Source: Veleropilina oligotropha
Lineage: Eukaryota
Direction of reading: 5' to 3'
Length of the DNA stretch: 64,000 nucleotides
Assembly: GCA_048128005.1 (NCBI GenBank)
Contig: JBEUKZ010000006.1
Coordinates: 372,001-436,000 of the forward strand
The position numbers and the translations under genes were made by a program. The notes under the pieces are model-generated. The model worked only from the letters and a program-made list of their open reading frames with translations. It was not told the DNA's origin and ran no database searches. Below, one piece after another: positions 21,901 to 42,900 of the stretch (positions are counted from its first letter, which is position 1; the number at the start of each line of letters is the position of its first letter).

Positions 21901-24900
21901 TTGAGATCCACTGAACTGTCGCGCACACTGTCTGATACGAGGCAGCACAGAATAAAATCATGGAGCACCTTTAAATCCTGCCTTTCCTCTCTGATGCATT
22001 CTGGAATGCTATCAATGATAGTCAAAATTGCCAGCCATTTTTTCTTATGGCATAAATTATTAATCATTTCGATTAGCGCCTTTTGAAACTGTGCAGTATT
22101 ATGCAAGTTCAGCATGCACGTCTTGACAGTCCTGTTTATATTCGAAGTCATGAACTTCAGTATTGGGTCACCGCCTCTCAGAATGTCAGGATAGTCGGGC
22201 AAAGCCAACGGAACCACATAGTTCAACAAATGTTCTTTTAGCACTGGAAAATCGATAGTTAATTTTTGATAGCGGTAACTTCGAATGTCCACCAAGTTAA
22301 TGTCCGATGGTGACCGCTTCTTAAACCGTTGATCACTCGCCGCATAGTGGTCATCGGTGAAGTGCTCTTCGATGTCGTCCAGTTCGTCTTCACACACGAG
22401 GCTGACCAGCGTAGCTATCAGGGCAGAGTCGGTCTTGATGTACTCCAGAGTGACCGGTGTGAGCTGGTACGACGGCTGATTGCCGGGTGGGCTGTTCTGC
22501 CCAGACTGATAGCTGTCACTGGACAACTCCATGTCGACGGGAAGGGACACCGACCGACGCTGACTCTTCAAGCGCTGTATGGACTTCTGCGTGACTTTAT
22601 AATCAAATACAAAAGCAAACTCATGGTTGTGTGCCTCGATGTCAACATGATACGGTAGGATTTTCATACCCGATGCGTCTGAAAAAAAGTTAAAATTAAA
22701 ATCTTTGTTTAACTAGAACAAAAAAATGTTTCCTAAATCAGGGATGGGAATGGCAAAAGTTATTTTCAGCTGAAAATCCAAACATGGAGGGCCGAAGGCC
22801 CGACAAGGGAGATCACGAGAGGGGCGGAGCCCCTCTTGTAAGGGGGGATGCCCACAGAAAAAATTTGAAATCTAGAAGGCTGGAGAGAGCATTTGAAGCA
22901 TTTTCAGAGTCAATTTATGTCTTGAAATATTGCCATATTATCTGCATATATTGCCATAGTAGTGACACAATATGAAGAACTAAACATTTTCTTTTACAAT
23001 GTTACATCTTATGACAGTTGTGAACAAAAAAATTTCAAGCTGCTAGAGTAGTCCCAAAGTAATATTATAAAAGACAAGAGCAAAAGCTCGAAATGGATCG
23101 CATGCATGAAAATGTGCATCAATCACTTATATTTCATATTGTGTTCACATTCAATAGTAGATTTCAAAGTCCAAAAGTGGTAATTTATGGGTACATTTCA
23201 ATTAAATTGCTCTCAATATTTCTACTCGAGGGCTAGATGACAATGACATAGTGATATATGACAAAGAACGATGCAAAAGTATGCCTATTGTTGCACATAT
23301 AGCATGCTTGAGAAACTTTAACCAAAAGCTTTAACGAAAATATATAAGTTCAAAACTTACATTTTACATGTTTTATAGTAAAATATAAATTAGATTATTT
23401 CAATAATATTTATTTAGGGCCAGGTAACAATGAAATAGTGATAAATATAACACATTTTTTAATGTTAAAACATGCATCTTGTTGCTTATATAGTAGCATG
23501 ATTGAGAAACTCTAACCAAAAACTGGCCAGACGAACGGCCAGACGACATGCTCAATAATACATAGACTCGCATTGCGTTGCATGCGAGCCAAAAATTATA
23601 GTAGCAATCATTTAAATATTGTGATGTACAATAAATTGTTTTGACACATTTTTTTTAATTTAAAATATTCCATACTTATATTATCTTCAGAGACTACGAG
23701 TGCTTAAGTGCCGATTCTAGGGAATAATTGGTTCGAAGATTCGTGTTATCGAAACTTTTTGGGTGCGTTTTGCCTTTCGTGGCATGTTCAGCTTCTAATA
23801 ATGTCACAGCCGCGAGAAGCGTAGTTAAAACATCATTGACATATGTCCAAAGTGCTTTTCCTGGAAGGTCACATTTCGCTATATAAGCAGATAATTTTTA
23901 AACAACTTCTTCCGTGTTGTTTCCGATTTTGACACAGCGACATTTGCTTCGAACATCTTTTGTTTCACTATCGCTTCGTCTCCCTCAAAATATCCAAGCG
24001 TAGGCTGTTACTAACGAAGTCTGTGATTGGTTAAAAATTGAGAGCGACGTCACCTTTTATTCAATCGATATTGATATTGAAGCGTGCAAAGAATTCTGGT
24101 ATTTCCGATGTCAAATGCATGGCGCCCGGAAATATACGAAACGATACGATAGTCGAAAAACTAAAGGGTCGGAAATCCCAAAAATATCCGAATGTTTCCG
24201 GCATTTACATTTGGTATTGAATAAAAATGCGTCTCAGAACGGGTTCGTACCAAGTCAAAACGGCTAACTGCTAATAAATGCAATTGATATCTGAACTGAA
24301 GGTGGGTAGTTTATAAGAAAATACAAGATATACATTATCTTTTTACTACTGAAGTAATTTTTATGATACTATTTTCAAAAATCAAGACCTCACCCCCCAT
24401 AAAATATCGCATCGGATTTGGACGTTTCACAATATCGACCCTGAGGGCAAAAAAATAGTGGAATTCTGCGGATCCGCTGAAGATTCTCATCCCTGCTAAA
24501 TGTAGATAGATAAACATAATGCAGCTATGGTGGGGTAGAACAGTGTTATATCTGTTTTAACAGAACGTTGACGATGGAACAACAGTCTCCAGGTCCAAAT
24601 CTTTATGAAACTAGAAAAACGTTGTGGCAGGCCACAAGAATGCCTGCGTGGTGGCTTAATATGTTATACTAAATTCCATAAATAAACTGCCAGACTAAAA
24701 CGTGCCTAACAACAAAGCTCATTTTTGAATCAGTATGCAGTAATGCACTTATTGACAAAACATCAGAATGCAAACCTCTTGAAACAAACCAAATTTGAAT
24801 CAAATTGGTTTAGAAATTTTCACTGTATAGCGCACATAACAAATTTCTTCAAAACAAAATGGCCACAACGGCGGCCATCTTGAATCCGAAAAGGACGAAT

Positions 24901-39900: not shown

Positions 39901-42900
39901 AAGGCAGGACATGTCCGTGTTATCGCGGGAGGAAACCCTGGTCGCCCGGGTAAACCCGCCCTCTTTGGCCAGTCGCGGACAACTATGATTCATAACTTCA
40001 ACAAATGTCAATGCCTCAGCCAGGTATTGAACCCACCACTGTTCGCATTAGCGGAATCAAGCCAGTGAATTTAGAGTGGACACTCTTACCCACTGCACTG
40101 CCGAAGCGGCCGTCCCTCGGTCAAATAGTATGGGAGATATGGAGCAAAAGGGAATTTTTGATCAAGTGCAGTCAATTATGAAAAGTAGATCGGGGTGACC
40201 TATTTTCAGTACGCGACACACCTTTGGGCTATGACGTATACACACCTCAAGTTTCGTGTCTTTCTGTCAAATAGTACAGGAGATATGGAGCGGAAAGGAA
40301 TTTTGGATTCAGTGCAGTCAAGCATGAAAAGTAAGTCGCAGCGACCTACTTTCAGTACATGACACACCTTTGGGTTATGACGCATACACACATCAAGTTT
40401 GATGTCTCTCCGTCAAATAGTATGGGAGATATGGAGCGGAAGGAAATTTTTGATCAAGTGAAAAGTGTGTCAGGGTGACCTACTTTCAGTACACGACACA
40501 CCTTTGGGTTAAGACGCATACACACATCAAGTTTCGTGTCATTCGGTCAAATAGTATGGGAGATATGGAGCGGAAGGGAATTTTGGATTCAGTGCAGTCA
40601 AGCATGAAAAGTAGGTCGTGGTGACCTACTTTCTGTACGCGACACACCTTTGGATTATGACGCATCCACACATCAAAGTTTCATGTCCCTAGGCAAAATA
40701 GTATCGGAGATATTGAACGGAAAGGAATTTGCAACAGACCGACCGACTGACAGACAAGCTGACTCTAATATGCCCCCCCTTAACTTCGTTTGTGGGAGCA
40801 TAACAAAACACAAAGAAAACCTATAACAATAGAATAAGATAATGATCTCACTTGGATTTACTTGATTTGTCATTCCATAAGGGAAGTTCTGAAAATATTT
40901 TTTAACCTGTTATGTCGAAATATCCAAGAACCTAACAGACAGTATGTTCATAGAATGAGAACATGAACATGACTGTGACTTCTACAATCACTGCTGTTAA
41001 CATGTATACCATAAGGTACGTTACCTGACCACGCCCAGTTGTCCTACATGATATGCAAAACTGCTCAGCTGTATCAGGCTGTCTAAACCTGATGTCAGGG
41101 ATGGGTCCGAAGGAAATACCTCATCAGACGAAGTTGGGCCTGATGTCGGAAGCTGAAAATATGAAGAGGGCAAATTGATTATTAAGATTCTGGACATGCC
41201 AAAAGACACTAAATTAAAAATACTTTATCGGTCACTATGTCTTATACAAGGCCACAGTGGTTATAGAACACAACACACTACATCTCTTGTAAACGAATTC
41301 AGTTAATATGCAAATATAATTTCGAATTATCAAAAACACATTTTTATTACTTCTCATGCAGATCGCAAATTTAATATTAAAATTCAAAATGGAAAATATC
41401 TTTGATTATGACAATTTAATTTGAATCTGACTTTCTTTGTACAGTAATACATGTTTTAATAACTAAGGTCAATTGGGGACAAGCTCATAATGATGGCAGA
41501 AGCAATGGCAAGAATTTCCAGTGAAAGAAACCCATCGTGGCTGGCTATAGCAGCATTGAATGTTCGACCGCTATCACAAGGGTGGTCATGCTTGCTTGCT
41601 ATGTTATATTTAATAGGTCAACTACTCACTCGAGCTTTGTAAGCTTGGTATAGATGCTGATGAATGGACATTAAGTTCAGCAGGTTGCTATAAAAGCATA
41701 TTTTGTCTTCCTTTGAGGAGAGCAGATTTAGGTCCACAAATCTAAGCTCGTCGACTCTTTGCAAAACGGCAGAGAGTTCTGATGACGATAACAGACTGGG
41801 CAGGCAGCTGGAATCCAATACACCCCGAGCCGTGCAGTCACGTGACGTCTCTGAATAACAAACAAAACATCAGATCATACCTCTGCACTAAATGGTATTT
41901 ACAAACAAGAGCTCCACGGAGCAATATGTCCCGCCTGATGGTGGAAAATTACGATATAATTTGCACGTACGGATGGAGCAACAACAATATCCCTGCTTCC
42001 TTCAAGCGGCAGACAGAAAGTATTGTCCAAGTTTGGTGATTATAGGACCTGTAGTATTCCAGACATTGAGCTAAACGCAAAACTTAACGTTGAAAAATAC
42101 CGAAGTCATTTGTTGATGGACAGACGAACGGACGGAGCAACAACAATATCCCCCGCTTCCTTCAGGCAGTGGACAGAAAGTGTTGTCCAATTTTGGTGAT
42201 CATATGTCTTGTTGTATTCCAGACACTGAGCTAAACGCAAAACTTAACGTTGAAAAATACCTAAGTCATTTGCACGTAAAACGTAGGTCAAGGTCGCAAG
42301 GGCAGCACTGATATGTAATGGGTACTCTATAACAAAGTTGTTGTCCAATTTTGGTGATCATAGGACTTGTAGTATTCCAGAAACTGAGTTAAATGCTAAA
42401 CTTAACGTTGAAAATGGTGAAAAATACCGAAGGCAAATGTGCGTAAAACAAAGGTCAAGGTTGCGAGAGCAACACCGATATGTAATGGGCACTCTATAAC
42501 AAATATGTTGTCCAATTTTGGTGATCATAGGACTTGTAGTATTCCAGAAACTGAGTTAAACGCTAAACTTAACGATGAAAATGGTGAAAAATACCGAAGT
42601 CATTTGCGCATCAAAAGTAGGTCAAGGTAACGAGGGCAGCATCCATATGTAATATGTGCACTGTAGTAAAGATACGGTCAAATATGATGAACCTACAACT
42701 TATACTTTGTTAGAAAGAGAGCTAAACACAAATCTTAACAATTGTTGACGCCGACGCTGGAAAAGCTATACCTATGTCACGCTTCTGCTCCTCAGGCGAG
42801 ACAAAAAACTAAAAAAGACACATTATGAAGTCTCAAACATTCTATCTTCTGGTAAATAATGAAGCAAAACTTTTTATAGCCAATGTATTACCAAAATTAT

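Follow-up and report, generated by a model that had tools for sequence, protein, structure and literature searches.

A DUF547 module in the spastizin (ZFYVE26/SPG15) gene of Veleropilina oligotropha, conserved in invertebrate orthologs and missing from vertebrate orthologs

Results

The spastizin gene in the window

We analyzed a 64,000-nucleotide stretch of the genome of Veleropilina oligotropha (assembly GCA_048128005.1, contig JBEUKZ010000006.1, positions 372,001 to 436,000 of the forward strand). This stretch is referred to below as the window, and coordinates are counted from its first letter. Most of an ortholog of ZFYVE26, which encodes spastizin (SPG15), lies within these 64 kb on the minus strand, the 3' end of the gene being beyond the window. 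The gene contains a module of approximately 320 residues related to the DUF547 family (PF04784), which is the subject of this report. The scallop ortholog (Mizuhopecten yessoensis, P0004) aligned by tblastn to the window in 26 collinear minus-strand matches, from 63496 to 786, covering residues 14-2628 of 3203. Other molluscan ZFYVE26 orthologs gave 21-22 collinear minus-strand matches each. Identity of the window gene to its orthologs is approximately 33-42%, the nearest being from molluscs and a nemertean, and no protein was found above approximately 42%. The ortholog of the bivalve Solemya (P0001) matched human ZFYVE26 (PDB 8yad_C) in a phmmer search with an E-value of 1.7e-58.

The FYVE region of P0004 was aligned by tblastn to positions 3887-3633 and 2425-2300 of the window. 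The single open reading frame (ORF) piece 3609-3929 did not match any Pfam family at E≤0.001, as expected for a FYVE domain split by an intron. The FYVE domain starts at residues 2297-2528 in the orthologs, and the human domain spans residues 1806-1873 according to the consulted part of a preprint (bioRxiv 10.1101/2024.06.14.598999). The last tblastn match corresponds to residue 2628 of P0004, at position 786. The C-terminal family TPR_ZFYVE26 (PF25569), located at residues 3081-3200 of P0004, therefore falls past the end of the window.

Exons and splice junctions of the module

To define the exons, a profile built from 13 invertebrate orthologs was compared with all minus-strand ORF pieces located between positions 21000 and 47500. 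Nine pieces gave collinear matches, nearly gapless in profile coordinates, with scores of 13-101 bits (Table 1); all other pieces scored 2.2 bits or less. Frame-keeping GT or GC donors and AG acceptors were then enumerated and scored on the ortholog profile. At every junction, the best or co-best candidate combined a consensus-like GT donor with a pyrimidine-rich AG acceptor in frame, as in aag/GTAAGA ... TTATTCAG/, where the slash marks the exon boundary. At junction 41630/41152, the second-ranked candidate (101.5 versus 102.0 bits) was chosen because its splice sites look canonical. Eight exons, from 45084 to approximately 22560, can thus be joined in frame through GT..AG introns into a module of approximately 320 amino acids, and the joined exons give an open product of 466 amino acids.

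An earlier note, made from this DNA alone, had quoted six peptides of the module. All six are present in the product joined from exon 41850-41630 to position 22678 onward, and two of them span junctions exactly as written (...GQLGVV/SLFDV... and ...PPIVV/LIPDL...). The six introns counted in that note are correct for the interval from exon 41850 to exon 22678. The whole module contains seven, since exon 45084-44965 had not been listed.

Table 1. Features of the ZFYVE26 locus (coordinates in the window).
Feature	Position	Strand	Evidence
Matched ORF pieces	47030-46935, 45070-44948, 41851-41642, 41110-41027, 39083-38994, 38582-38472, 38001-37906, 28336-28169, 22682-22335	-	Ortholog profile
Upstream anchor exon (3' part); conserved in vertebrates too, aligns with vertebrate CCCEP	46907..47030	-	52.6 bits; donor aag/GTAAGA at 46907
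Exon, first helices of the module	44965..45084	-	29.7 bits, ortholog profile positions 46-86; acceptor ...CATCTAG/, donor aag/GTAAGC
Exon, start of the Pfam DUF547 core	41630..41850	-	72.7 bits; alone PF04784 E 0.034, 14.6 bits, profile 5-28; splice sites found
Exon with variable loop	41025..41152	-	22.5 bits; acceptor TTTTCAG/, donor cag/GTAACG
Module exon	38996..39081	-	23.6 bits; splice sites found
Module exon	38475..38575	-	38.5 bits; splice sites found
Module exon	37909..38001	-	13.0 bits, E 0.0012 alone; 67.7 bits for junction with preceding exon
Exon with LINYI, end of the Pfam core and C-terminal helices	28153..28333	-	36.9 bits; acceptor TTTGTCAG/, donor cag/GTGATT
Long exon, first part (runs on to ~21700): last strand pair of the module, then downstream anchor (conserved in vertebrates)	22335..22678	-	100.8 bits; tblastn to P0004 covers 22679-21702, E 1.75e-67
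FYVE finger, first part (exon, same gene)	3633..3887	-	tblastn to P0004 residues 2382-2465, E 5e-12; P0004 FYVE = 2436-2496
Degenerate GC-rich retroelement copy, not in the gene product, filling much of the 9.8-kb intron between exons 37909 and 28333	28800..33400 (approximate)	-	Broken ORFs; RNase H matches 30263-30775; GC 0.46-0.50 versus ~0.38 around

Identity of the module

Two profiles were used to identify the module. Profile A1 was built from 11 modules of SPG15 orthologs (320 positions), and profile A2 from 35 short, mostly stand-alone DUF547 proteins, one of which (P0200) later fell inside the SPG15-type clade of the module tree described below. The window product matched A1 with a score of 322 bits (E 1.9e-100) over profile positions 1-319 of 320. 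It also matched A2 with a score of 127.8 bits (E 2.2e-41; profile 12-285, product 51-378), the maximum obtained with 200 shuffles of the same product being 1.2 bits. Alignment of A1 with A2 by hhalign gave a probability of 100% and an E-value of 1.8e-53. Because this alignment spans positions 1-317 of 320, the insert of approximately 320 amino acids appears to be equivalent to a complete stand-alone DUF547 protein rather than to the 125-position Pfam core only. In the module, N-terminal helices are followed by the PF04784 core, further helices on the C-terminal side, and a last pair of strands.

The conserved residues of the family were also found in the module. At most of the 40 best-conserved columns, determined with 123 generic members of the family, the window has the commonest residue of the generic group. 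Residues F72, N75, N78, H83, Y128, G131, S137, D140, P153, and D171, as well as P182, R183, G191, S194, P196, W239, Y240, D243, and F244, occur both in the window and in 22 SPG15 modules, and the E-P-R sequence at positions 181-183 is kept in the window module. The PF04784 family itself, for which the Pfam gathering cutoff is 27 bits, was detected at E≤0.01 in 14 of the 15 orthologs scanned, 12 of them above the cutoff (41.4 bits for Solemya P0001, 65.1 for amphioxus, and 60.5 for Ptychodera). It was detected at E≤0.001 in all of 18 further long proteins, 16 of which scored at least 27 bits. Together, these comparisons identify the module as a true DUF547 (PF04784) domain, as the earlier note had proposed.

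Two candidates were discarded. COG4_C (E 0.13) and other Pfam matches on single exons were considered as noise. A Cys-containing motif considered for DUF547 was dropped, as the column tallies show S..P at this place and no dominant Cys.

Vertebrate spastizin at the site of the module

Thirteen invertebrate and nine vertebrate orthologs were aligned with MAFFT. Both flanks of the module align (upstream ...L.LN...Q.IV..CC.P.P. and downstream LT...L.FLKS.S.L.A..ACL), and between them the vertebrate sequences consist almost entirely of a gap. The number of residues between the two anchors is 72 in Callithrix (protein of 2539 amino acids, anchors at 1231 and 1308), 71 in Apodemus, 70 in a turtle, 72 in a sturgeon, and 109 in a teleost, versus 405 in the window and 370-411 in amphioxus, scallop, abalone, and Nematostella. 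The insertion site lies in the α-solenoid and corresponds approximately to residues 1235-1305 of the 2539-residue primate protein.

Profile searches gave the same picture. With the HMMER filters off, the best E-value obtained with A1 and A2 among 89 vertebrate-type proteins was 0.36. Human ZFYVE26 (8yad_C) aligned with Solemya P0001 in a phmmer search of PDB sequences up to query residue 1462 (human residue 1236), and not across residues 1555-1700. Profile A1 had no match at E≤10 among the PDB sequences, although human ZFYVE26 is present in that bank. The statement in the earlier note that the module is not recognizable in vertebrate SPG15 is therefore borne out. These data are best read as the removal of the module, on the lineage leading to the vertebrates sampled, by a clean deletion of approximately 330 residues.

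In vertebrates (P0110, P0072, P0045, and P0038), a short stretch located between the anchors, SLLT.L..LA.LHA, can be aligned with the first module helix, and a Pro/Ser-rich linker follows it. By its sequence, this stretch looks like the footprint of a deletion.

Distribution and phylogeny of the module

A survey of orthologs that used the conserved C-terminal part of amphioxus ZFYVE26 as query retrieved 463 proteins at E≤1e-5. The best 120 of these 463 proteins were examined and comprised 31 invertebrate-type proteins (28 named and 3 unnamed) and 89 vertebrate-type proteins (85 named and 4 placed by length and similarity). The named invertebrate-type proteins originate from Branchiostoma, the hemichordates Glandiceps and Ptychodera, the starfish Acanthaster and Asterias, the crinoids Anneissia and Antedon, the nemertean Lineus, Nematostella, and many molluscs. 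The named vertebrate-type proteins originate from sturgeon, teleosts, turtles, crocodile, birds, lizards, and mammals. Precomputed annotation lists PF04784 for 29 of the 31 invertebrate-type proteins versus none of the 89 vertebrate-type proteins, in agreement with the expectation of the earlier note that automated annotation might already record the domain. The two unflagged invertebrate proteins, P0006 and P0007, do carry the module (334.7 and 425.3 bits with A1; 139.5 and 142.3 bits with A2). With the HMMER filters off, 37 of 40 invertebrate-type proteins matched both profiles at E≤1e-5, the three others being N-terminal fragments of 1305-1441 amino acids.

Scanning 1.84 billion cluster representatives with A1 gave 3217 matches at E≤0.001. 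The long matches combine DUF547 and FYVE, mostly with TPR_ZFYVE26. Those with a name include proteins from Argonauta (a cephalopod), Owenia (an annelid), Bulinus, the insects Anabrus and Bacillus rossius ('Sptz'), Oratosquilla (a crustacean), Centruroides (a scorpion), Priapulus, Saccoglossus, and Didymodactylos (a rotifer). The ortholog survey suggested by the earlier note thus locates the module in molluscs, an annelid, a nemertean, arthropods, a priapulid, a rotifer, echinoderms, hemichordates, amphioxus, and Nematostella.

A tree of 141 modules (213 columns) was inferred with FastTree under LG+gamma and rooted at the midpoint. The smallest clade containing the window module and all 22 known SPG15 modules has 54 tips and a support of 0.999. 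The remaining 31 tips of this clade are 8 added long or unnamed proteins and 23 short proteins. No partner domain was detected in the 21 short proteins that were scanned, and the short proteins of this clade may be fragments. The SPG15-type clade includes none of the tips in which DUF547 is fused to DEP, PTEN, RasGAP, or glutaredoxin. Proteins P0184 and P0134 are not in the clade count, having been either removed by the coverage filter or placed outside the clade. As judged from the topology, the window module adjoins that of the nemertean Lineus among lophotrochozoans. Judging from the tree, the SPG15 modules form one clade and have a single origin. Since cnidarian, protostome, and invertebrate deuterostome orthologs all carry the module, the sequence comparisons indicate that it is ancestral to eumetazoan SPG15. 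The earlier note had left the choice between an ancestral and a lineage-specific module: the first alternative is retained and lineage-specific acquisition is ruled out, the module being monophyletic and present in these three groups. The note's further suggestion that the module is old agrees with its presence from Cnidaria to cephalochordates.

Three metagenome proteins of 2143-2278 amino acids, P0152 and P0155 (DUF547 and FYVE) and P0184 (DUF547 and TPR_ZFYVE26), scored lower than all named animal orthologs. One possibility is that they represent divergent or non-animal forms of SPG15 containing the module, which would move its origin earlier.

Predicted structure and partner domains

AlphaFold2 models were obtained for the amphioxus module with an 11-row alignment (predicted local distance difference test, pLDDT, 79.6; predicted template modeling score, pTM, 0.82) and for the generic DUF547 protein P0188 with 35 rows (pLDDT 91.4; pTM 0.90). 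Comparison of the two models by the order of their elements, without superposition, revealed the same succession of helices and two small strand pairs. The search for structural relatives proposed in the earlier note was unsuccessful, as Foldseek returned no PDB match at E≤0.001 for either model, with TM-scores of at most 0.28 among the matches listed. Comparison with 48,161 representative chains by VIA-align, the result of which excludes no fold family, gave best Z scores of 5.5 for the module (de novo helical binders and Ypp1) and 5.2 for P0188 (14-3-3), which are within the stated noise of the tool. The ESM Atlas provided no usable match when PF04784 clusters were left out. By these searches with predicted models, the fold would have no recognizable solved relative, which is not proof of a new fold.

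Among 83 other A1 matches that were scanned, 73 contained DUF547 at E≤1e-5. The partner domains were DEP (15 proteins), PTEN_C2 (7), RasGAP (4), glutaredoxin (4), protein kinase (2), and DENN, PH, PP2C, and Duc1 (1 each). Where a name is given, the proteins belong to protists or to a green alga (Mantamonas, Phalansterium, and Apatococcus). Similar associations appear in the consulted parts of three papers: plant class IV glutaredoxins have the organization GRX-DEP-DUF547 (PMC13621322), Entamoeba PTEN carries DUF547 (PMC9122207), and an Arabidopsis MIP1-DUF547 protein devoid of transmembrane helices is found in a polar plasma-membrane domain (bioRxiv 10.64898/2026.08.17.745151). As far as these parts extend, the three papers agree that DUF547 accompanies membrane-peripheral signaling modules.

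Repeats in the introns of the gene

Besides the retroelement copy listed in Table 1, a second GC-rich copy is present in an intron at positions 6100-11000 of the minus strand and contains a 517-amino-acid ORF matching RVT_1 (67.7 bits). The GC content of the two copies is 0.46-0.60 versus approximately 0.38 around them, and we presume from the look of their ORFs that both are tyrosine-recombinase/DIRS-like. A 191-bp satellite extends from 11459 to 14036 (13.6 copies, 94% match) in an AT-rich stretch with a GC skew of -0.34. The introns of the module contain a 25-bp minisatellite (26 copies, 37173-37832) located just downstream of exon 38001-37909, a (TA)129 array at 35902-36158, and a perfect 19-bp repeat (18.4 copies) at 39232-39580. 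Arrays with units of approximately 140-170 bp are located at 25118-26241, 27014-27675, 40112-40730, 41965-42653, and 57468-57761, and one of them adjoins the 5' side of exon 41850. These arrays display peptide-like ORFs on both strands (KMATTAAIL... and ...NVHTKFE...) and are probably tandemly amplified elements resembling short interspersed elements. Finally, an 18-bp repeat (31 copies, 96% match) at 111-675, just past the last aligned exon (947-786), is open on both strands (SNMSGQ... and HVTLTT...) and is either intronic or a low-complexity coding insert in spastizin.

Discussion

The best explanation of the results as a whole, in which we have high confidence, is that the window encodes an SPG15 containing a DUF547 module that was ancestral in eumetazoans and was deleted in vertebrates. 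The window gene resembles the invertebrate ZFYVE26 orthologs for which PF04784 is listed by automated annotation (M. yessoensis P0004, Haliotis P0010, Branchiostoma belcheri P0016, Ptychodera flava P0021, and Nematostella vectensis P0032). These proteins consist of a long solenoid with DUF547 at approximately 1400-1780, FYVE at approximately 2300-2530, and a C-terminal TPR_ZFYVE26. The gene is collinear with them, and their profile is matched by its module from one end to the other; it differs from them by an identity of approximately 42% for the best match and by the location of its TPR_ZFYVE26 part past the end of the window. Human and vertebrate SPG15 (2539 amino acids; 8yad chain C) is an orthologous scaffold, in which the N-terminal, central, and C-terminal solenoid and FYVE align and both anchors are conserved, but the DUF547 module is absent, approximately 72 residues taking the place of the 370-411 found in invertebrates. 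The cryo-electron microscopy preprint on human SPG11-SPG15 describes a solenoid-FYVE-solenoid organization, and the term 'DUF' does not occur in its text (bioRxiv 10.1101/2024.06.14.598999). The DUF547 proteins of protists, algae, and plants (DEP-, PTEN-C2-, RasGAP-, GRX-DEP-, and MIP1-DUF547) are homologous over the whole module, with the same conserved residues and the same predicted order of helices and strands. They differ in their partner domains, their position outside the SPG15-type clade, and their Pfam scores (70-185 bits versus 24-65 bits for SPG15-type modules).

Several points weigh against this explanation. The exon joins are predictions from homology and splice consensus. In the scan of single exons with Pfam, only 41850-41630 gave PF04784, with a weak score (E 0.034, 14.6 bits) below the 27-bit cutoff, and the other six ORF pieces scanned did not give PF04784. 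Two of the 15 orthologs scanned are just under the Pfam cutoff and one has no match at E≤0.01, all three carrying the module according to A1 and A2. Sharks, cyclostomes, tunicates, and named non-metazoan SPG15 are absent from the proteins examined, and the times of gain and of loss are therefore only loosely bracketed. No solved structure resembles either model in the searches reported above. Regarding function, the co-occurrence of domains is a correlation only, and the core mechanism does not require the module, as shown by vertebrate SPG15, which lacks it and still works in lysosome reformation.

What the module does can be approached from the fusion partners of DUF547 and the retained polar residues, on the basis of which we tentatively consider that it may be a ligand-binding or regulatory domain with a conserved pocket, acting at the membrane alongside FYVE. 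A different proposal, which we regard as improbable, is that the module is an enzyme or a pseudoenzyme, for example with an activity linked to glutathione or thiols and related to the helical domain of glutathione S-transferase (GST) or glutaredoxin 2 (Grx2). This would imply a catalytic activity of invertebrate SPG15 on lysosomal membranes. In favor of this proposal, the family has nearly invariant polar positions (N, N, H, Y, D, R, S, and D), as judged from the near-invariant columns of A2, and the window retains them. Fusions of DUF547 with glutaredoxin occur in 4 of the 83 relatives scanned and, according to the consulted part of the same plant paper, in class IV glutaredoxins (PMC13621322). 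GST and Grx2 chains were also present among the weak structural matches (2wb9, Z 4.4, for the module; 3wyw, Z 4.7, 1g7o, Z 4.0, and 7miq, Z 3.9, for P0188); these Z scores are within the noise of the tool for helical models, and we did not rely on them. Against it, Foldseek returned nothing at E≤0.001, fusions with DEP, PTEN-C2, and RasGAP outnumber those with glutaredoxin, and the consulted parts of the papers found report no catalytic activity of any DUF547 protein.

The gene model could also be wrong if the exons belonged to a separate DUF547 gene nested in the introns of ZFYVE26, or if they were alternatively skipped, the major spastizin mRNA then lacking the module. The dispersion of the module exons over 23 kb, with large introns filled with repeats, would fit this possibility. 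It is nonetheless very unlikely, since the exon phases are compatible, the anchor exons (47030-46907 and 22678 onward) join the module in frame, and the last strand of the module shares one uninterrupted exon with the downstream SPG15 anchor. In addition, dozens of independently predicted orthologs are annotated with the same continuous architecture, the module always being located between the same two anchors. Persistence of the module in vertebrate SPG15 in a form diverged past recognition, to which the helix-like SLLT.L..LA.LHA stretch aligning to the first module helix might be ascribed, is hardly conceivable because the 70-109 residues present between the anchors of the five vertebrates measured are far too few for a fold of approximately 320 residues, and because none of the 89 vertebrate-type proteins matched A1 or A2 at E≤0.1 with the filters off, A1 recovered no PDB sequence at E≤10 from a bank including human ZFYVE26, and 8yad_C was absent from the Foldseek matches of the module model at E≤0.001.

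For an ancestral DUF547 module deleted in vertebrates, a mechanism may be envisaged. The module would provide the SPG11-SPG15(-AP-5) scaffold with a second membrane-proximal contact besides the binding of FYVE to phosphatidylinositol 3-phosphate, and this contact could involve a lipid head group, a small GTPase, or another ligand. In vertebrates, the input of the module would have been abandoned or transferred elsewhere. The complete scheme is speculative and doubtful as it stands: DUF547 would act on a membrane ligand as a sensor or enzyme with a conserved pocket and would be an original working part of the animal SPG11-SPG15/AP-5 lysosome-reformation scaffold, located mid-arch approximately 600-900 residues upstream of FYVE, and vertebrates would have deleted it, its input being lost or handed to another protein. 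The link between DUF547 and lysosome reformation, proposed in the earlier note, is putative and derives from the domain context.

The architecture itself is already visible in public automated annotation and is not hidden, since PF04784 is flagged on the orthologs. As far as we have searched, the occurrence of an ancestral module that vertebrates deleted appears not to have been reported in print. By title or the start of the abstract, and with supplementary files outside the search, none of the DUF547 papers listed concerned ZFYVE26 or SPG15. With the same limit on supplementary files, the papers found to mention PF04784 or IPR006869 were all on plants. The consulted part of a paper on a fly model of SPG15 ('Sptz') mentions FYVE as the only domain (PMC9976989).

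SPG15 and SPG11 are hereditary spastic paraplegia genes, the mechanism of which has been studied almost only with vertebrate proteins. In most animal lineages, spastizin possesses a supplementary globular domain, strongly conserved and absent in humans, and invertebrate models may therefore not be architecturally equivalent to the human protein. Through spastizin, DUF547, an orphan family counting 3217 cluster representatives at E≤0.001, is also found within a defined machinery of membrane trafficking. If the sensor or enzyme proposal were true, invertebrate spastizin would offer the first functional context for this 3,000-member orphan family and would point to a missing regulator in the human pathway.

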